Source: a virus. Taken from it: a stretch of DNA of 64,000 bases. The translations under genes and the position numbers were made by a program. Shown one piece after another: positions 3,862-62,148 of the stretch. The notes below the pieces were generated by a model, which worked only from the letters and a program-made list of their open reading frames with translations, did not search any database and had not been told where the DNA came from. The stretch lies in the IMG/VR virus record IMGVR_UViG_3300044800_000286; one strand, given 5' to 3'. Position 1 is the stretch's first letter. The number at the start of each line of letters is the position of its first letter.

Positions 3862-4611
3862 CTAAGTGCCTTCCCTACTAGAGGTTTTTCGTAGATGAGC
3901 AATGACCATTTCCAATTCTTCAATCGTAGCGTTGTTTTTCAATGTATTGGCTCGATGACTGATGACTTCGGTGTTGGTTTTAAGGTAACCCTTTGTAGAA
4001 TCAATACGATCTAAGGATGGACTAGCATCGCCGACCCTATGCCCGGATCGGAGAGGAATGTGTAGAACAGGACAGACTTCGGGAATAGAAATATCCTGCG
4101 GCGTAATGTTGAACAAGTTCTCCAGAGGCTTGCCTGACCTTTCCGCCCACTCCGTCGCTCGATCTCGGGCCTTTCTCCAAAGACGGTATTCCGGTGTCTT
4201 CCATACGTGATTTTTTCCGTAACTACCCCAGCGCCCGCCTTTAATCAATTGCTCCAAGTTATAGCATCCGCAGCTTATGGTGTGGCTCCGCCTTAAATTG
4301 TCGGCGCTTACTTCTTTCACAGTTCCACAATCGCAGCGGCATTTCCACATTACAGGCAGTCTATCCCCAACACGAGTCATAACCGTCCATCGCCCGAATT
4401 TCTGTCCCACAGGAACCTGATGGCGAGCTTTGAGCGCCTGAAGATTATGACAGCCGCAGCTTTTGCTGTTTTCATTACGCAAATTGTCAGCGTAGACGCC
4501 CCTGACAGTTCCGCAATCACAGCGGCATTCCCAGCAAGCCCGTCCCTTGCGGTTGTCTAACCGTTTGACGACCGTCCATCTATTAAATTTATTACCCGGC
4601 TCTATAGCCAC
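3862..4611 (-). CDS. HNH homing endonuclease
   Basis: Two W-x-CRCDCG...SCGC repeats plus SPSLDRIDSTKGY...N..VISHRANTLKN core. Confidence 0.85.
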   Translation of the reverse strand: MAIEPGNKFNRWTVVKRLDNRKGRACWECRCDCGTVRGVYADNLRNENSKSCGCHNLQALKARHQVPVGQKFGRWTVMTRVGDRLPVMWKCRCDCGTVKEVSADNLRRSHTISCGCYNLEQLIKGGRWGSYGKNHVWKTPEYRLWRKARDRATEWAERSGKPLENLFNITPQDISIPEVCPVLHIPLRSGHRVGDASPSLDRIDSTKGYLKTNTEVISHRANTLKNNATIEELEMVIAHLRKTSSREGT

Positions 4612-4658: not shown

Positions 4659-5498
4659 TTACTGTTCGGAGTCGGGAGGATTATCGTCCTGATCTTCGGG
4701 CTTTTTGCGCCCTTTGGACTTGGTCGCGTTCTTCTCTTTTTCAAGTTTCAAGAGCTTTTCCTTGGCCCGTTCCAAGAGTTCGGATTCGAGACCGACAGGC
4801 ATGAGCCCGAGGCCCTCGGAGTCCGACTCGGGCGGGGGAAACTTCGAAGCGTACTTCTTTTGCTTCTCCGCCGCCAGGACCCGCGCCTTCCGGGCTTGCT
4901 GGTAGGCTTTCTCCATGGCTTTTTCCATCTTGGCCGCCTGGATGATCTTTGACCGCCGAACCTTTGTCAGCACCCCGAAAGCATCCATCAGGCGCTTCAA
5001 GGTCGGAGCCAAGGCATCCTGTTCCTCAAGCTCAAGGAATCCCCACAGCCTGTTGAGCCACAGCAGCACGGCTTTGGAGCTTTCCTGTGCGCGAACGCTT
5101 AAGCCCATCTGATTGTAAATCCGCCTGGAATCCAATCTCATCAGGCTTCGCTTGCGGTAAATCTCCGCGCCGTCGTCCGATTCCTTGATCTCCCAAGCCG
5201 CAAATTGCGGCGGGAGGTCCTCGGAGAAGGCCTTGGACTTCTTCCCGGCAAGCTCCTCCTTGGTCCTGGCGAATCGGGATTTGCGGAGCTTGCGGGGACC
5301 GACCTTTTTGGCGATGGATTCGTGCTGCTGCCCCGCCTCCAGCCCGACCGCCTCTTCAATGATGTGCCCCGTGTCGTCCTTCTCAAGCTCCTGCGTCCAT
5401 GCGCGCCCGCACCGGCGGCACGTCTCCAGCATGTCCACCGGGCTGCCGCACTTCGGGCACCGCTTGTCCTTCCAACTGGTCTTTTTCTTTTTTGCCAT
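4659..5498 (-). CDS. Hypothetical protein with N-terminal Zn ribbon
   Basis: CPKC...CRRC, basic and helical; RBS upstream. Confidence 0.6.
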   Translation of the reverse strand: MAKKKKTSWKDKRCPKCGSPVDMLETCRRCGRAWTQELEKDDTGHIIEEAVGLEAGQQHESIAKKVGPRKLRKSRFARTKEELAGKKSKAFSEDLPPQFAAWEIKESDDGAEIYRKRSLMRLDSRRIYNQMGLSVRAQESSKAVLLWLNRLWGFLELEEQDALAPTLKRLMDAFGVLTKVRRSKIIQAAKMEKAMEKAYQQARKARVLAAEKQKKYASKFPPPESDSEGLGLMPVGLESELLERAKEKLLKLEKEKNATKSKGRKKPEDQDDNPPDSEQ

Positions 5499-5539: not shown

Positions 5540-8500
5540 TCAAGAGACGGGGACTTCCTCTTCCACAACCTCTTCATCCGCGGACAGTTGGAGCACTCCT
5601 TGCTCGGGCGGAGGTTCGTCGCCCAATAACTCCAGCACCGGGCGCTTGACCCTGGCATCGAGGGGTATGGCACCGAGGAACCCGAACTCCGGAGCCGTGC
5701 CGCGGTTCGCTTCGCCGAGTCCCATGCGGGTCTCGTAATCGGCGAGCTTCTCCAGCTTGCTGCCGTCGTCATCCGGCGTGTAGTCGATTGCCCAGTACTC
5801 GTGAAGCTGGCAGACGGCCGTCAAAAGCTGCTTGGCTTCCTTCGGGTCTTGGGTCTTGAACAGCGCGGTCGTCGCCTCGAACGCCCGCGGATGCAGGTTG
5901 GCGTACAGCCATTCCTTTGCCTTGTCCACCCGGCTCTTGTCGCCCGACAGGATCGCCTTCAGCAAATTCCTGATCGTCGGCACGTCGAAGTCGCTCGGGA
6001 TATACCCGGAGATGCCATCAATGCACGTGTAGCCGTAGGGATATTTCTTGTCCATGACGCTGAAGTCCACGTCCCAGCTTCGGCCGTATTCGGCGTCCGC
6101 TTCCACGGGCACAGGCCATTTCATCTGTGCGTGGTACTTCCGCAGCTTCATGAGCCGGGTGAGCCGCGGCAGGACGAACGGCACGTACTCGTTCTTGATG
6201 CTCGCGTCGATCTCGTCGTGCACCGACCCGTGCAAGCGAAACACTTTCTGCACGTCGGGATCGCTCAGCACCCACATGCGGATACGGTTGACGGCGATAC
6301 GCATGAAGTCGCCGCAGATGCCCTGGATCGGGGCGTTCACGGCGACGCGCTCGATCTTGCCCATGAACTTGTTGTACTCGATGGCGTTGCGGACGCCCGT
6401 GTCGGGGGTTTTCCAGAGGCGGTCGGCGGCGTCCTTGTACCTTTTCGCCCGCTCCTCGTCCCTGTCCGCCTTCGACTTTTTCGCCTCCGCCTTCGCCTCG
6501 CGCGAGAGATCGTAGTACTTGCTGACGTTCCTGCGCTCCTCGGCACTCGGCTTGTGGATGCACTTCGCCTGCATAGCGGACTCGAAATTGATGACGCGCC
6601 CGGTGGCCGTCTCGCAGACAAGCTGCAAGCGGGCTCGGTTGCGCTTGATAGCGCACCACTCGGCGTACTTCGGCACGCCCTTCCAGTAATTGGCGATCAT
6701 CTCCTCGCACTTCTCCATCGTGATGGTCGGGTCCTTCTTGCTCATGTTTTCGTAAATGGCGTACGCCGTGCCGCCGTATTGGAGGACGAAGTTGATGATC
6801 TTGCCGAGGCCGCGCAATGATTTTGCCTTGTATTGCGGGCTGTTCGGGTCGTTGTACTGCGGGAACACCTTGGAGGCGGTCAGGGCGTGCTGGTCCCCGT
6901 CGCCCTCAAGGAAGATTTTCTGCAATTCGGGCTCGCCCGACAAGTTGGCGGCCTCGCGGACCTCAATATTACAGTTGTGAGAAAGCAATCCCTCGGCAAT
7001 GAATGTTTTTGTTGAAGTTTTGATCGCAACAACTTCTTGCATTCCAATATGCTCTACAGAAATAACCGTGTCAGGGATGGTGTATTTGCTAGAGCATGTT
7101 TTTCCATCCCACAGTTTTTTACGGGCGTTCTTGATCAAGCGTTCGGGTCGGACACTTCCCAAGAATTTCAAAGAAGCGTTTCTTCCACCTAGAATCCGCA
7201 AACGTTCAACATTAGATTTGTGAGTGTCATGGGCGAGTGTATAACCCATGCCTTCAAGCAGTAGCTCGGCTTTATCGAGCGTCGGCCCTTTCTTCTGTCC
7301 TACTCCAACCCCGGTCCCGGTCGCCCAGCCCTCGCCGTCGAACAAACCGTTGAGGTACCCGGCGTCATAGCTGCGATTCTCCTCCCAGGGGTCGCAGAGC
7401 CGTGCTATTTTATCTCCGACTTGCAAGTTTTTAGAAACCGTCCAACCATGCCTGCCCCGAACTAGTTTTCTACCTCCGGCGGCTCTTTCTGTGAGCCAAC
7501 CGTGATCCTCGGAGACGGTGAAAACGCCTGAATTTGTAGTTATTTTCACACACGGCAACTTAAGGTTTTTTGTACTCAGAACGCGCGAACCACGCATCCT
7601 GCGCCGACCGTATCGAGTACTCGGAAGGTTCTCGTCAAACCCTATTAGCTCTTCCCCCTCAACAACGTCCTTAGCTTGCTTCCATCTCAGGTCGGAAGTG
7701 AGCAGTTTTGTTGACATAGAAACACAGTAATCGATTGAAAAAAATGTCCAGCCCCCTTGCGCGACAAACAAACACCGCAAATTGACTGTCTCCAAGCTAT
7801 CCATCGACGTGTTGGCGATGAGGATGCCGAACTTGTCCTTGCACGTCTGGCACTTGGGCACGAGGCAAATCGCATAGCCTTGGTACTGCCCGATGTGGTT
7901 GTTGACGATGCCAGGAGCCTTTTTCTTGACTATGCGCTTTTCTTTGATGGGCTGCGGGGGGACGGGAACCGCTACCTCCTCGCTCCATTCGGTCAGAGTG
8001 TGCTTGACCGTGGCCTCGGTGTACCCAGTGATGACATCCTCTTCCTCCGTGTGGAAGCATGACGGATGCAGGTCGGACTCCTCGTAGGCGTCCACCTGGT
8101 CCGTCGGGATTTCATCCGGATCGAGCACATTGCCGTAAACACGCCACTGCTCGTCGGGCTCCAGTTTTTTCACGCCTTGGGGATTCAGTTCGAATCCCCC
8201 GTCCCGCTCGAACACGCCGCCAGCGCCGGAAAGACGCCCGCCGCCGACCACGTTCTGCTTGAGGTACATGCGGGCGGAGTTGTCCAGCTTGTCGAACTTC
8301 AGGTTCTCGGGGTGCAGCGCGGCATACTCCTTGAATTTCTTGTAGGTCAGCAAAAACTCGTTATCGGGGCTTCCCTTTAGAAGCTCGATGATGGTTTCCT
8401 TGTCGGTCGAATCGCTGCCTCCGTCGGTCGTGCGATACGGCTTGAACTTCATGGTGGTGAACAGCAGCTTGCTAAGCTGCGCGGGCGAACCGGGGTTGAA

Positions 8501-10974: not shown

Positions 10975-11017
10975 TGGTTGCGGAGGCTACTGAGCTACCT
11001 TTGCTTCATCCCCCGCA
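10975..11017 (-). ncRNA. 43-nt mini-tRNA (fMet-like acceptor + D arm, no anticodon or T arm), ends ACCA
   Basis: TGCGGGG-GATGAAGCAAAGGTAGCTCAGTAG-CCTCCGCA-ACCA. Confidence 0.65.
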
Positions 11018-11143
11018 CGGAAATCAAAGCCGACCCGAGTTTCGCCAGCCCTCTACGGATTGCTCCTCGGGCTCCTACGGCGCACTCGACGCTCGGGTCG
11101 GACTTACCTGCGGGAACAGCGAATGACTGTTCCTTTACAAAAC

Positions 11144-11185
11144 CGGTTGCGGAGGCTGCCGAGCTATCTTTGCTCCATCTCCGCA
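11144..11185 (-). ncRNA. 42-nt mini-tRNA, second diverged copy, ends ACCG
   Basis: TGCGGAG-ATGGAGCAAAGATAGCTCGGCAG-CCTCCGCA-ACCG. Confidence 0.6.
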
Positions 11186-16481: not shown

Positions 16482-18310
16482 CAGTCATCCTCCTCACCGG
16501 CGACACGGCTGAGCCTCGGCTTTTCGTCTTCCGCCTGCGGGAAATTCACCGTGAAGCCCATCGTTTCCTTGCCGGACTTGATCTTCAGCGACCCTTTCTT
16601 GAAGTTGGTCTTGAGGCGGGCCAAGGTCTCCTTGCGGTCCAGCCCGAGGCAATAGGACGCCACGACAAGCTCGCGCAGGTGGGCCAAGCCCAGCCCCTCC
16701 GTGGCATCGACCAACTCGTCCAGTTCCTTCTCCGGCATGTGGTCCTTGAGCAGGTTACGCAGGTAGGCCCTCCGCGCCTCGGCCACCGGGTGGTTCAGCC
16801 CCACCACGAGGTCGAAGCGACCGGGGCGCTTCACGATGCGGTCCTCAAGCTGGTCCGGCTTGTTGGTGGTGTTGTGTTGAAGTAACCCCTCGCCTATAAA
16901 GGTTTTGGTGCTGGTTCCAAGAGCAACAACAGGACCAGGTCCGATTTCTTCAACAGACACTACCTTGTCGTACTCCGGGCAGATTTTAGTTCCATCCAAA
17001 ATTTTTAACAACAATTGGTTGGCTAGAAGCCGGATCGGACGAATGGAGCCGAGAAATTTAAGCTGTTTCCATTTTCCTCCTTTGAGGTCTATGCCTATCT
17101 GCGGACGTAGCGGGGTCTTGCCATCTTGGCACACCCCCCTCCCTCCGCTGGTTGTTTGCGGCTTGCGGTCGTAAGCTGTGAAGTTGAACCCCGTTTCGTT
17201 AAGAAATTTCTTTGTCTTATCGACTACTATCCCCTTCGCTTGAGCCCATTTCACACGAAACGTCCGACCCCCCGTGTTGTTGTCGCCGATATTGAGGCTG
17301 CCTTCCGCATCGTACTGGGCGGACAAATAGGCTCCCGCTTCGGAAGCGTCGGTCTCCCATGGCTTGCCGATTGAAACTACTCGGTTGGCCGCCTTAAGGT
17401 CTTCAACAAAACGCCATTCAGGAGAACAAGAGCCTAACTTAACTAAGAACGGATGGTGCTCGCTAACCACGATTTCCGTGCCGCTTTCCATTTTTACCCG
17501 AAACCGTTTTTTTGTAACCAGCGGGCAGGCTTCAACTGTAGCAACTCTCAGCTTTCTTCCCAGACCTTTGCCGAATTTGCGGGTCTCATCAAAGGCCGCT
17601 ATTCTATCTCCCGGTACTAGTTCATCTGCCCGTACCCAGGAAAGATCGGCCTTCAAAATACGTGTTTCAGGGGCAGGACAAGCGAGATGGACTATATGCT
17701 CCACCTGCGTCTCGCCGTCGAGGAGCGCCAGCAGGGCGCGGGCGGACGAGGACTCGTCGCTGCTCCCCATGAAAGTCTCGATGTCCTCGATGATGGTGAG
17801 GATCGGCCGCCGCGCCTCGATCTGGCGGATGCCGCCGAGGGCGTTCTCGGCCAGCCTGCAATTGGTGACCATGACCACGATGCCGTCGCGCTTCACAACG
17901 TCGTCGCACAGCAGGCGGATGATGCTGGTCTTTCCCGACCCCGCCGGGCCGTACATGAGGATGCCCCGCTTGTGCAGCAGCCCCGTCTGCTGGAAAAGGC
18001 TTTCGCGCTCCCAGAAGACCTTGATCTGGTCGAGGATGTAGTCGATGGGCATGCCCGGCAGCCGGAGCAGGGTGTCGGACGGGAACTTGACCTTGCTGAG
18101 GTACCAGCCCGCATTGTCGTTGTCGATCTCGTAGATGCCAGCGGGGACGGTATCCTGGGTCTTGCCCACGGGGCGGTACAGCCCCTTGTGCAGGCTCCAG
18201 TGGTAGTACTCGTTCTGGTCGTCGTCCGCGACTCCGCCGCTGTCGCGTTTCGGCTGGCCTTCTGTTGCTGTTTCCGGCTCGTCTTCGTTGTAATCGCGGT
18301 TTTTGCCCAT
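16481..18310 (-). CDS. AAA+ ATPase, intein-containing
   Basis: Walker A GPAGSGKT, Walker B IIEDIE, sensor 1 A|TTN, arginine finger KRPGRFD. Confidence 0.9.
   Translation of the reverse strand: MGKNRDYNEDEPETATEGQPKRDSGGVADDDQNEYYHWSLHKGLYRPVGKTQDTVPAGIYEIDNDNAGWYLSKVKFPSDTLLRLPGMPIDYILDQIKVFWERESLFQQTGLLHKRGILMYGPAGSGKTSIIRLLCDDVVKRDGIVVMVTNCRLAENALGGIRQIEARRPILTIIEDIETFMGSSDESSSARALLALLDGETQVEHIVHLACPAPETRILKADLSWVRADELVPGDRIAAFDETRKFGKGLGRKLRVATVEACPLVTKKRFRVKMESGTEIVVSEHHPFLVKLGSCSPEWRFVEDLKAANRVVSIGKPWETDASEAGAYLSAQYDAEGSLNIGDNNTGGRTFRVKWAQAKGIVVDKTKKFLNETGFNFTAYDRKPQTTSGGRGVCQDGKTPLRPQIGIDLKGGKWKQLKFLGSIRPIRLLANQLLLKILDGTKICPEYDKVVSVEEIGPGPVVALGTSTKTFIGEGLLQHNTTNKPDQLEDRIVKRPGRFDLVVGLNHPVAEARRAYLRNLLKDHMPEKELDELVDATEGLGLAHLRELVVASYCLGLDRKETLARLKTNFKKGSLKIKSGKETMGFTVNFPQAEDEKPRLSRVAGEEDD
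16871..17680 (-). mobile_element. Intein (270 aa) at AAA+ sensor 1
   Basis: CPAPETRIL...EGLLQHN|T; degenerate LAGLIDADG YLSAQYDAEG. Confidence 0.9.
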
Positions 18311-59009: not shown

Positions 59010-59084
59010 TGGCAGCCTCGATGGGTATCGATCCCACTTTCCGGCCTTGAAAGGGCCGTGTCCTAGCCAGTAGACGACGAGGCC
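59010..59084 (-). tRNA. tRNA-Glu (TTC), atypical T loop
   Basis: CTTTCAA loop, GCCA end. Confidence 0.85.
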
Positions 59085-59090
59085 AAACTA

Positions 59091-59600
59091 TTACTCGAAC
59101 GTCCGCCCTTTGTAAAGAGCGGCCTCGTCCAAGAAAACCTGTCTAGTTCTTTTGGAGTGTTCTATGCGATGACAGATCGAGCACAACAAAACACACTTAT
59201 CTAACTCGCGCTTGATGTATTCCCAAGCTCGATTGGCGACTCCGCCAATCGTAAAATCCTTTTCACCTTTGCAGTGATGAAACTCCAGACCTGCGGGATG
59301 TTTGTCATACCCGCACTGGATGCATTTTCCACCAAGATACATAATGGCTGCGTTCTTCGCCCGAATACGGCGTATCATCGTGTTACAGGACTGACATCTA
59401 GTCCGATGCCGAATATTTTTTCCTAAACCCCCGCCACAAAGTTTACACTTTGAGGGAATAGGTGCCGCCATTCGTTTTGTTTTCAACCCCAATTTAGCCA
59501 ACCAGTACCGCACATTAGATTGGCAGGTGTTGAATTCATCAGCGATCTGACGCTGTGTCAAACCCCTTTCAATGGCTTGTAATACATCGGCACTGTTCAT
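59091..59600 (-). CDS. HTH + HNH endonuclease
   Basis: LTQRQIADEF; GGKCIQCGY...LEFHH...CVLLCSICH. Confidence 0.85.
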   Translation of the reverse strand: MNSADVLQAIERGLTQRQIADEFNTCQSNVRYWLAKLGLKTKRMAAPIPSKCKLCGGGLGKNIRHRTRCQSCNTMIRRIRAKNAAIMYLGGKCIQCGYDKHPAGLEFHHCKGEKDFTIGGVANRAWEYIKRELDKCVLLCSICHRIEHSKRTRQVFLDEAALYKGRTFE

Positions 59601-59613
59601 TTGTATCTCCTTT

Positions 59614-59637
59614 GATGCTCTACCGTTGAGCTATATC
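59614..59637 (-). pseudogene. 5' tRNA remnant (D arm) just upstream of the HNH RBS
   Basis: GATATAGCTCAACGGTAGAGCATC followed by AAAGGAG...ATG. Confidence 0.55.
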
Positions 59638-59660
59638 TAAGGGATACAAAGTCAAAAAAT

Positions 59661-59736
59661 TGGTCCCAAGAGTGGCGCTCGAATCCACGTACTCCTGCTC
59701 TTCAGACAGGCGCTAATCCATCTCAGCTATCTTGGG
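59661..59736 (-). tRNA. tRNA-Phe (GAA)
   Basis: CTGAAGA loop, CCA. Confidence 0.85.
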
Positions 59737-59746
59737 TTCAAACTCT

Positions 59747-59822
59747 TGGTGCGCCCGGAGTGAATCGAACACTCCACCCCTGCCGTGTCAAGGCAGTGCT
59801 CTAACCGATGAGCTACGGGCGC
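59747..59822 (-). tRNA. tRNA-Val (GAC)
   Basis: TTGACAC loop, CCA. Confidence 0.9.
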
Positions 59823-59826
59823 AAAC

Positions 59827-59863
59827 TGGGGGGCGGCTTATACAGTACCCTTTTTTGCCGCCC
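59827..59863 (-). ncRNA. 37-nt microhelix ending C-CCA
   Basis: GGGCGGC-19 nt-GCCGCCC-C-CCA. Confidence 0.6.
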
Positions 59864-59867
59864 AAAC

Positions 59868-59932
59868 TGGACCGCCCCGTTTGCCTTGCGGCACCTAAGG
59901 TAGCTTCGCGAAAGCCACGATGGCCGAGACGG
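59868..59932 (-). ncRNA. CCA-ending RNA with two internal hairpins
   Basis: CCGTCTCG/CGGGGCGG-T-CCA; GTGGCTT..AAGCTAC; TGCC-GCAA-GGCA. Confidence 0.55.
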
Positions 59933-59939
59933 ATAAACC

Positions 59940-60016
59940 TGGTGGACAGGACACCTTAAGGATTTTACGCATCCCTTTAGCGGGGCGTTTCCCCTCTATG
60001 CGGACGCAACCCGCCC
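59940..60016 (-). ncRNA. 77-nt CCA-ending RNA with Ala identity (G3:U70, A73) and non-tRNA body
   Basis: GGGCGGG/CCTGTCC-A-CCA; no T-loop consensus. Confidence 0.55.
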
Positions 60017-60023
60017 TCAAACC

Positions 60024-60097
60024 TGGTGGAGCCACGGGGATTCGAACCCCGGTTTCATCGCTGCGAACGATGTGTTCTCCCGCTGAACTATGGCCCC
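60024..60097 (-). tRNA. tRNA-Ala (CGC)
   Basis: G3:U70, TTCGCAG loop, CCA. Confidence 0.9.
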
Positions 60098-60103
60098 GAA
60101 ACC

Positions 60104-60310
60104 CTACAATTCGTACTTCACGATCCGACCCTGGGTGCTCGGATCATCCTGGAACTCGATCCAGTGCGCGTAGCAGTAGTGCAGCAGCATCCGGCTTAGC
60201 TCCTCGCTCCTCAGCGGATACTGATAATAGACCATGACGGCGTGGCTCGCCGGAGCGTCGCATCCGTCCGTCTTAGGATCGAACCACTGGCATTTCATGC
60301 CCACCGCCAA
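60104..60310 (-). CDS. Small hypothetical protein
   Basis: C...C...YCYAH. Confidence 0.45.
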   Translation of the reverse strand: MAVGMKCQWFDPKTDGCDAPASHAVMVYYQYPLRSEELSRMLLHYCYAHWIEFQDDPSTQGRIVKYEL

Positions 60311-60386
60311 ACTAATTGAGCGGACTCACCGTTTCCGGCTACGGTCCATGTTCTCTTTCAAGCCCAGTTCGCCTTCCGCTCAAACT

Positions 60387-60462
60387 TGGTGCGCCCCGCT
60401 GGAATTGAACCAGCGGCCTCTCGCGTGTGAAGCGAGCGCTCTGACCGCTGAGCTAGGGGCGC
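60387..60462 (-). tRNA. tRNA-Val (CAC)
   Basis: TTCACAC loop, CCA. Confidence 0.9.
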
Positions 60463-60664
60463 GAATTCAGCAGGCCGAAAAGCTGGTCGGTCGCCGTGTT
60501 CAGCAAAAACAGCGGGGGCGGCTTCAGCGGCTCCGCCCTGTGCCTCGCTTCAAGCTGCGCCTTGTACACGACGAGGTGCTTGTAAATCTCCCGGAGCTTG
60601 TGCTTCGGCACCGCCATCGTTGCCGTCTCTACCTTCGTCTTCTTCATCGTCTCCTCAAAACCCT

Positions 60665-60738
60665 TGGAGCGGGCGATGGGAATCGAACCCACGTCCGTAG
60701 CTTGGGAAGCTACTATACTGCCATTGTACGACGCCCGC
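60665..60738 (-). tRNA. tRNA-Gly (CCC)
   Basis: TTCCCAA loop, TCCA end. Confidence 0.92.
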
Positions 60739-60746
60739 TCAAATCT

Positions 60747-60822
60747 TGGTGGACCTGATGGGATTCGAACCCACGACCTCCTCGATGCCATCGAGGCGCG
60801 CTCCCAACTGCGCCACAGGCCC
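60747..60822 (-). tRNA. tRNA-Ala (GGC)
   Basis: ATGGCAT loop, G3:U70. Confidence 0.92.
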
Positions 60823-60828
60823 AAAACT

Positions 60829-60905
60829 TGGTAGCCCGGACGGGGCTTGAACCCGTAATCTTCACCTTGAGAGGGTGACGAGTTAGCCAGTTACTCTACC
60901 GGGCC
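60829..60905 (-). tRNA. tRNA-Glu (CTC)
   Basis: CTCTCAA loop, CCA. Confidence 0.88.
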
Positions 60906-60917
60906 GAACTCAAAAAC

Positions 60918-60991
60918 TGGAGCGGGGTACGGGACTCGAACCCGTTTCTCCACCTTGGAAGAGTGGTACACAACCCATATGCCAACCCCGC
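60918..60991 (-). tRNA. tRNA-Gly (TCC)
   Basis: CTTCCAA loop, TCCA end. Confidence 0.88.
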
Positions 60992-61000
60992 GCAAAACTT

Positions 61001-61323
61001 TGTGTCAGACCGATAAGCCGGGTTCTGTCTGGGACAATCATTCATCTATGACGTACATCGCTGCACGCCTCAAGCTCCCAACCCGCCGCTTGGTAACGCC
61101 CCGAGCAGGGGCTCACGGCCTATTTGGGATTGCTCCGCATGGAGGTTGCCCGTTTCACCCGCACGGTTTCTGCTTGGCAAGCATAATACCGTGCGACTCG
61201 TCTCTGTTGCCCTATTCGTCATCCGGCCTTTCAACCAAACGCCCAGCCGTTAGCTGGCATGCTGCTCTGTGGAGCCCGGACTTTCCTCCCCCATTGCTGG
61301 CGGCGATTGTCTAGCCTGACACA
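61001..61323 (-). ncRNA. rnpB: RNase P RNA (bacterial type A-like, ~320 nt)
   Basis: GAGGAAAGTCCGGGCTC near the 5' end, ACAGAACCCGGCTTA near the 3' end, GGTGAAACGGGCAACC, P1 TGTGTCAG/CTGACACA. Confidence 0.93.
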
Positions 61324-61328
61324 AACTC

Positions 61329-61403
61329 TGGAGCACCCGGTCGGTGTCGAGCCGACTCGTAACAGTTTTGCAGACTGCCGCGTTCCCGTTTCGCCACGGA
61401 TGC
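61329..61403 (-). tRNA. tRNA-Cys (GCA)
   Basis: CTGCAAA loop, U73. Confidence 0.88.
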
Positions 61404-61409
61404 AAATTT

Positions 61410-61484
61410 TGGCGGTGCCAGCGGGAGTCGAACCCGCGCTTCTACCGTGACAGGGTAGTGTCAGTACCGCTTGACCATGGCACC
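61410..61484 (-). tRNA. tRNA-Asp (GTC)
   Basis: CTGTCAC loop, G73. Confidence 0.9.
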
Positions 61485-61523
61485 GCATTGTCCGAAGCGC
61501 ACATCGTTCTTCAGACACAAACT

Positions 61524-61597
61524 TGGTGGACCTGAGGAGAATCGAACTCCCAATTCAGCCTTGCAAAGGCCGCAGTTTCCCGTTAGCATACAGGCCC
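61524..61597 (-). tRNA. tRNA-Ala (TGC)
   Basis: TTTGCAA loop, G3:U70. Confidence 0.88.
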
Positions 61598-61869
61598 ACA
61601 ATCTGTTCCCACGACAAACCCAAATACTTCATGCACCAATGGACTGCTTTGTGGCAACGAAAACACAATCTCACAAACTCCCCACTTTTCATCTCAATCT
61701 GGTGTTCTTTCTCTCCCATTGATTCAAATCTCTTGTGTTCTTTACCATCTTTTCGATGCGCAACTGATCTCTTTGAATAACTACAAAAGAAACACTCTTT
61801 TCCAAGATTTGTATCAACTATCGCTCGCTTTCGGTCCCTTCGCTTCTTATTCCACTTAGCAGTCGCCAC
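61555..61869 (-). CDS. Small HNH-like protein; stop codon inside tRNA-Ala
   Basis: CFFC...AHRKDG...LCFRCHKAVH. Confidence 0.65.
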   Translation of the reverse strand: MATAKWNKKRRDRKRAIVDTNLGKECFFCSYSKRSVAHRKDGKEHKRFESMGEKEHQIEMKSGEFVRLCFRCHKAVHWCMKYLGLSWEQIVGLYANGKLRPLQG

Positions 61870-61895
61870 AAACCCACCTTGGATCGCCTAAACTT

Positions 61896-61969
61896 TGGAG
61901 CGGACGATGAGAATTGAACTCACGCCTGAACGTTGGCAACGTTCCGTACTACCACTATACTACGCCCGC
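61896..61969 (-). tRNA. tRNA-Gly (GCC)
   Basis: TTGCCAA loop, TCCA end. Confidence 0.9.
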
Positions 61970-61970
61970 T

Positions 61971-62046
61971 TGGTAGCCCCTGTCGGAATCGAACCGACGG
62001 CCCTTCGGGTGTAGACCGAATGCTCTGACCGCTGAGCTAAGAGGCT
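61971..62046 (-). tRNA. tRNA-Val (TAC) with C33
   Basis: TCTACAC loop, CCA. Confidence 0.82.
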
Positions 62047-62060
62047 GCACAAAATATCGA

Positions 62061-62148
62061 TCCCGTCTGCACAGGGTTCCGAATCGAACGGGGAGGGAAT
62101 GACCCCCTTTGCTGGTCGCCTATGCCAGCCTGCCCTGTGCAGACAAGA
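62061..62148 (-). ncRNA. Cloverleaf RNA with a 16-bp closing stem, CAT-centred loop and T loop, no CCA
   Basis: TCTTGTCTGCACAGGG/CCCTGTGCAGACGGGA; GTCATTC loop; CCG-TTCGATT-CGG. Confidence 0.6.

Follow-up and report, generated by a model that had tools for sequence, protein, structure and literature searches.

Three small RNA units with tRNA-like ends inside a phage tRNA array: independent cassettes and possible acceptor-end decoys

Between the genes for tRNA-Ala(CGC) and tRNA-Val(GAC) of a phage tRNA array lie three short units which have the ends of tRNAs without being tRNAs, and this raises the question of what these units are, how they are released and what purpose they might serve. The window, i.e. 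the whole stretch of 64,000 nucleotides that was analysed, is part of a 155-kb virus record (IMGVR_UViG_3300044800_000286) which is about 50% complete, and DNA identical to the window is present in peat and pond metagenomes. Since close homologues of a flanking gene of the window are located on contigs of 450–465 kb, its source is probably a jumbo phage.

The array and its three units

The array is encoded on the minus strand; it comprises 14 tRNAs (for Val, Gly, Ala, Asp, Glu, Cys and Phe) and also contains an RNase P RNA. The features of this region are:

59747..59822, minus strand: tRNA-Val(GAC), the downstream flank of U3 (ARAGORN)
59827..59863, minus strand: U3, 37 nt, read as the short allele of a 71-nt RNA (comparison with the contig of run X17 and with L130, the closest other phage species)
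59852..59853, minus strand: junction of the presumed 34-nt deletion in U3 (comparison with the X17 contig and L130)
59868..59932, minus strand: U2, 65 nt (fold; ortholog in L130)
59940..60016, minus strand: U1, 77 nt (fold and array comparison)
60024..60097, minus strand: tRNA-Ala(CGC), the upstream flank of U1 (ARAGORN); a 12-bp direct repeat links its end to that of U1
60998..61322, minus strand: phage-encoded RNase P RNA of type A, inside the array (Rfam match, 209 bits)
62187-62162, minus strand: intrinsic terminator, ahead of the array and after the leader ORF
62336-62211, minus strand: 41-codon GNN-rich leader ORF, ahead of the array

The three non-tRNA units described in an earlier note, which had been made from the letters alone, were confirmed in position, length and ends, all of them on the minus strand. 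Each unit is closed by a stem of 7–8 bp (8 bp in U2) followed by NCCA, with pair probabilities of 0.92–1.0, and a 7-bp terminal stem arises by chance in 0.04–0.15% of the shuffles per unit; the z-scores of the whole folds are modest (-1.6 to -1.9). Within the Ala-to-Val precursor each of them folds independently, no pairing between the units was found and the homodimer energies are similar for all three. The spacers around them, which were thought to be one and the same short GTTT, are indeed short, similar and comparable to the spacing of the tRNA genes, but they are not identical (7, 7, 4 and 4 nt). A genome-wide scan for a stem, NCCA and a T-rich spacer recovers all three units in register with the array tRNAs, together with scattered chance matches elsewhere.

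The tRNA cloverleaf (RF00005) with its D, anticodon and T arms is absent from U1–U3, while an acceptor stem and NCCA are present. The reported lack of a T loop and an anticodon arm stood up, as U1 has no canonical T or anticodon arm and U2 and U3 contain no remnants of D, T or anticodon arms. Standard scanners do miss the units, as had been predicted: ARAGORN makes no call on any of them and yields only noise at a lowered threshold, and Rfam gives no match at the gathering score and only weak unrelated overlaps at E<=10. Searches of cultured phages with blastn returned tRNA matches only. The notion that the units belong to one family, however, has to be given up, because they share no common sequence and the covariance models of U2 and U3 match only their own orthologs, apart from one match of the U2 model at window positions 16774-16833 (23 bits), which is regarded as chance since it has neither a CCA end nor a tRNA neighbour on the same strand. 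A CCUUA(A)GG motif common to U1 and U2 was dropped, as it is not conserved in L130.

A metatranscriptome contig (run X20) spans positions 59637-60129 including U1–U3; it shows no ends and possibly derives from DNA, and since contigs of the same run also cover part of an HNH endonuclease gene, the support for transcription is weak. Bacterial RNase P recognises its substrates by the stem, by U(-1) and by the RCCA at the 3' side, and RNAs other than tRNAs are cut as well (PMC10731613, PMC11143913). The RNase P RNA of the array, which is present in all eight of the full related arrays scanned, is a candidate ribozyme for 5' processing; a pattern scan of genome contigs for RNase P RNA gave bacterial rnpB matches only. 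Very probably, the units would be co-transcribed with the array and excised by tRNA maturation, with RNase P acting at the 5' side under the guidance of stem and RCCA, followed by trimming of the 3' side. Given such an excision, the tRNA-like end would first of all constitute a handle for release and stability.

Similar size and RNase P-type ends are also found in the C4 RNA of P1/P7 (PMC11143913). That U1–U3 are antisense regulators of this kind is hardly probable, as there is no Rfam C4 match and the longest complements in the phage genome (12–13 nt) correspond to the shuffle background.

A GNN-rich leader followed by a terminator occurs in 12 arrays, with 47–62% GNN compared to a background of 35%. 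As judged from their sequences, leader ORF and terminator are likely to form an attenuator which senses shortage of Ala, Gly, Val, Asp and Glu tRNAs, and the operon looks as if it were induced by shortage of the tRNAs encoded in the same array.

Several further observations were made in the window. The tRNAs of the array (59010-62046, minus strand) are almost all GNN decoders, plus Cys and Phe, and this bias is family-wide. The RNase P RNA (60998-61322), as read by eye, retains in L15 a GGU with which RCCA would pair. A D-arm-like tRNA fragment (59600-59640, minus strand) lies immediately before the HNH endonuclease gene (59600-59091). More terminally paired non-tRNA units without CCA are found in or just ahead of the array (about 60315-60382 and 62060-62140, minus strand), the second of which contains a T-arm-like hairpin and is common to L130. 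Finally, in two alike 43-nt units (about 10975-11017 and 11143-11185, minus strand) an acceptor-like stem is combined with nothing but a D-arm-like hairpin; one terminates in ACCA, the other in ACCG.

Identity elements and allelic forms

The 7-bp acceptor-like stem of U1 begins with G1-C72, G2-C71, G3:U70, C4-G69 and G5:U68 and is followed by A73 and CCA, and the interior is a single extended hairpin with an 18-nt linker. The set of G1-C72, G2-C71, G3:U70 and A73 is present in 53 of the 60 Ala tRNAs of the related arrays versus none of the 171 other tRNAs, and U1 has its first four pairs and its ACCA in common with tRNA-Ala(UGC/GGC) of the same phage. Most of the bacterial set behind the proposed Ala identity is therefore in place (G3:U70, A73 and G2-C71), whereas C4-G69, which also occurs in the phage's tRNA-Ala(UGC/GGC), replaces G4-C69, an Ala determinant of E. 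coli that is minor in bacteria (PMC9976931). By the published AlaRS rules (PMC9976931) U1 can probably be alanylated. It would, with fair probability, be the only one of the three to be charged by the host AlaRS, and since no T-stem is stacked on its acceptor, it would bind EF-Tu poorly and would not take part in decoding.

The 12-bp direct repeat consists of the last 7 nt of tRNA-Ala(CGC) plus the spacer on one side and the 3' end of U1 on the other. As it joins these two 3' ends, U1 may owe its 3' identity bases to copying of the adjacent tRNA end, and the repeat offers a possible route for gain or loss of U1. No homologue of U1 outside its own phage species was found by an exact-pattern scan of IMG/VR or in the arrays of the relatives; the copy in run X17 differs in a single unpaired base.

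U2 had been described as a two-hairpin RNA of 65 nt ending in U-CCA, and while length and end are correct, a three-way junction is the better description of its fold; it is made up of the closing stem, a long hairpin arm and a GNRA-capped 3-bp hairpin, with U73-CCA at the end and an A(-2)U(-1) leader. U73, C2-G71 and G3-C70 are as in the bacterial Gly set (U73, G1-C72, C2-G71, G3-C70) with the first pair reversed (C1-G72); the Cys reference set is U73, G2-C71 and C3-G70. In minihelices U73 alone can give Cys identity, and it is the main discriminator for Cys and Gly (PMC9976931). U3 has a 7-bp closing stem and C73 and ends with CCA in the window and with CCU in L130, compared to a CCA encoded in 181 of the 187 tRNA genes of the related arrays. 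His identity was not found in U3, as C73 is not accompanied by G-1 and position -1 is U in both the window and L130. Of the supposed family of chargeable mimics, at most U1 fits the description; U2, with part of the Gly/Cys set, may or may not be chargeable, and U3 has no identity set.

An Ala identity without a decoding arm in U1 and the U73 of U2 would be in line with the earlier suggestion that the units donate aminoacyl groups to non-ribosomal chemistry, such as cell wall, lipid or protein aminoacylation. This suggestion found no support and is very improbable, since the approximately 50% complete record contains no FemAB or LPG-synthase gene or other aminoacyl-transferase partner that could be found, none of the arrays read has a partner gene behind its cassettes, and U3 fits no identity set. 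Genes for a CCA enzyme, RtcB or AlaRS were not found in this record either.

Except for 34 additional bases, the contig of run X17 is almost identical to the window, and it encodes a 71-nt U3. The bases missing from the window constitute a GC-rich hairpin and a U-run, which are present in both X17 and L130, and between the long U3 of X17 and that of L130 the identity is 87%. Since L130, the more distant phage, also carries the long form, the simplest reading of the 37-nt U3 is a deletion form of the 71-nt RNA, one contig each (X17 and L130) giving the polarity. U3 is consequently no native microhelix, and its ortholog lacks the final A of CCA. The short form is the commoner allele in this species, and the U3 of the window is probably a truncated and dispensable one.

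Related arrays and turnover of the cassettes

About 15 distinct arrays of this phage family were gathered by means of the leader motif, the neighbouring phosphoesterase and a small ORF located in the array. Differing cassettes, amounting to 7–300 nt, occupy the slot behind tRNA-Ala(CGC) in 15 arrays, a turnover which is expected in an arms race. Many array cassettes have a closing stem without CCA, and the feature common to the cassettes is a closing stem plus a short tail.

L130 carries U2 and U3 but not U1. The U2 ortholog (L130:6285-6349) is 89% identical, with all seven changes inside the long arm, and 22 of 22 pairs are kept, one of them by a double change, while neither the closing stem nor UCCA has changed. 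For comparison, the 89% of U2 and the 87% of long U3 stand beside 60–100% for orthologous tRNAs and 86% for the adjacent ORF (77% at third positions). The changes in U2 and U3 spare the helices and both closing stems are invariant. Conservation of the stems in relatives, on which the earlier note had made its proposal depend, holds for U2 and for the closing stems of U2 and U3; for U1, no homologue outside its species was found. Covariation of U2 on two sequences was not significant (242 of 500 shuffles), and an exact-pattern scan of IMG/VR for U2 gave no match.

The patchy distribution and the commonness of the U3 deletion, as well as the repeat flanking U1 and the tRNA-derived fragments carried by these phages, might suggest neutral remnants, either tRNA genes that have decayed or passengers moved about when the 3' ends of tRNAs recombine. 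Such an origin is improbable in view of the lack of D, T and anticodon remnants in U2 and U3, the pairs of U2 that were kept over seven substitutions and the closing stems that do not differ between the window and L130.

Unrelated anticodon-less RNAs with an Ala-type end recur in the related arrays, which favours selection on the Ala end. One type of 55–57 nt, here called A58, is present in four phages and 62-nt types were found in L227 and L132; two anticodon-less Ala-ended RNAs occupy the slot after tRNA-Ala(CGC) in L227. A58 and the cassette preceding it are located at:

L131:8013-8100
L139:3981-4075
L213:5109-5204
L227:5742-5830

A58 exhibits G3:U70, A73, CCA, a D-loop-like segment and an 8-nt T-like loop, and has no anticodon arm. 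In all four phages it is preceded by a small hairpin cassette whose loop pairs with the middle segment of A58, and both change together (duplex of -12 to -13 kcal/mol), suggesting a possible two-part RNA. Membership of U1 in A58 was considered and rejected. An alignment by eye and shuffles of sequence pairs seemed to give significance (local p 0.001–0.02) with a family picked post hoc, but the membership is rejected both by nhmmer and by the covariance model; on the A58 model R1 U1 scores 5.7 bits (E 1.7), compared to 71–86 bits for the members used to build the model.

Other recurrent elements were seen in these arrays. An RNA of about 125 nt with several hairpins (L001:5796-5915, L130:6515-6640, L132:8518-8645 and L143, about 4260-4388) has no CCA and no Rfam match. 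The same applies, in the loci scanned, to another RNA, conserved and about 85 nt long (L131:5770-5850, with equivalents in L139, L141, L143, L213, L227 and L247), which follows tRNA-Ala(UGC) or tRNA-Asp. A 103-nt non-tRNA (L131:7827-7929, L141:5744-5847) has an 8-bp closing stem with a compensatory change at pair 3, and A73-CCA in both copies. A 42-nt hairpin RNA (L246:3745-3786; L131, about 8120-8163; L135, about 5421-5459) has a conserved purine-rich loop and in two of the three cases a U-CCA end, which is Gly/Cys-like. An ORF of 203–248 amino acids with a tRNA-synt_2b match, a synthetase-like fragment (L131:8329-9033, L213, L216 and L246), lies inside many related arrays and is absent from the array of the window.

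Proposed function and known systems

As our leading explanation, which we put forward tentatively, U1–U3 would be three independent genes for small stable RNAs, inserted as swappable cassettes in a jumbo-phage operon of tRNAs and RNase P RNA and possibly serving as counter-defence decoys. Their task might possibly be to soak up host proteins that attack or sense the acceptor ends of tRNAs, and the decoys would be made upon depletion of the cognate tRNA pool. This role is favoured because the operon looks induced by tRNA shortage, the cassettes turn over fast and CCA-end toxins which read the acceptor stem exist and have been implicated in antiphage defence (bioRxiv 10.1101/2024.07.05.602228); such toxins select tRNAs by acceptor stem and CCA. 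The decoy role raised in the earlier note is plausible. Against it speaks that the commoner allele of U3 appears to have lost half of the RNA and that its ortholog is without CCA, as do the many array cassettes without CCA, the C4-G69 pair of U1 and the absence of U1 homologues from the other species searched.

Nearly as likely as the decoy role is that the tRNA-like end is merely a processing handle, that the interior hairpins act, as a protein sponge or regulatory RNA having nothing to do with tRNA mimicry, and that any charging of U1 is incidental. The CCU end of the U3 ortholog is readily explained in this way, as are the unrelated interiors of the units with the conserved hairpins of U2 and U3. 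Moreover, the stable RNAs of T5 share stem and 4-nt tail with CCA in only two of seven, and C4 antisense RNA, phage M3 RNA and 4.5S RNA are non-tRNA substrates of RNase P (PMC11143913). A mere handle leaves unexplained, however, why several unrelated cassettes bear the Ala signature, which none of the 171 non-Ala tRNAs has.

Extending the decoy role to the array as a whole is doubtful: it would then be an inducible and swappable stock of acceptor-end decoys, of the Ala-ended type of U1 and the U73 type of U2, whose ends copy the tRNA families served by the array and which would, upon tRNA depletion, absorb host toxins modifying the CCA ends or the charged acceptor stems of tRNAs. If the units are decoys, the phage would be using RNA for counter-defence against tRNA-targeting immunity; otherwise they are still new small-RNA families missed by scanners.

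Among known systems, the tRNA-Ala minihelix and the tRNA-like domain of tmRNA resemble U1 in G2-C71, G3:U70, A73 and CCA and in the absence of an anticodon, but in U1 the acceptor carries no stacked T arm and there is no tag frame; an SmpB gene was not found in the approximately 50% complete record, and Rfam overlaps of the tmRNA type were far below threshold. The bacterial Y RNA YrlA is a small tRNA-mimic RNA present in some phages, whereas U1–U3 have no T loop and no Rfam match to it, and no TROVE/Ro60 gene was found in the same incomplete record. The C4 antisense RNA of P1/P7, the M3 RNA of phi80 and 4.5S RNA are likewise small non-tRNAs matured by RNase P, with no matching Rfam hit in U1–U3.

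The closest likeness in arrangement is seen in T5 (AY543070), where RNA1, RNAI and RNAIII are three consecutive non-tRNA RNAs in a tRNA cluster next to tRNA-His, like U1–U3, with four further short ones in the cluster (RNA2, RNA2H, RNA3 and RNAIV). All seven have a closing stem and a 4-nt tail and are annotated as stable RNAs with unknown function, whereas U1–U3 are known from sequence alone; there is no sequence similarity (p 0.09–1.0) and the T5 RNAs are mostly longer (73–172 nt). In T4 (AF158101), rnaC and rnaD (species 1 and 2 RNAs) are tandem small stable RNAs immediately after a tRNA gene, and rnaD ends with ACCA; they too show no sequence similarity to U1–U3, and rnaC has kept a T arm, which U1–U3 lack. 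According to the annotations the role of these T4 and T5 RNAs is unexplained, and the array family is a natural comparison set for them, with one slot and many cassettes, a long and a short allele of U3, presence or absence of U1, recurring Ala-type ends, the RNase P RNA and the likely attenuator. As non-tRNA units with a closing stem and a short tail inside a phage tRNA cluster, U1–U3 are new sequences of the kind known from T4 and T5, which is a kind and not a sequence family.
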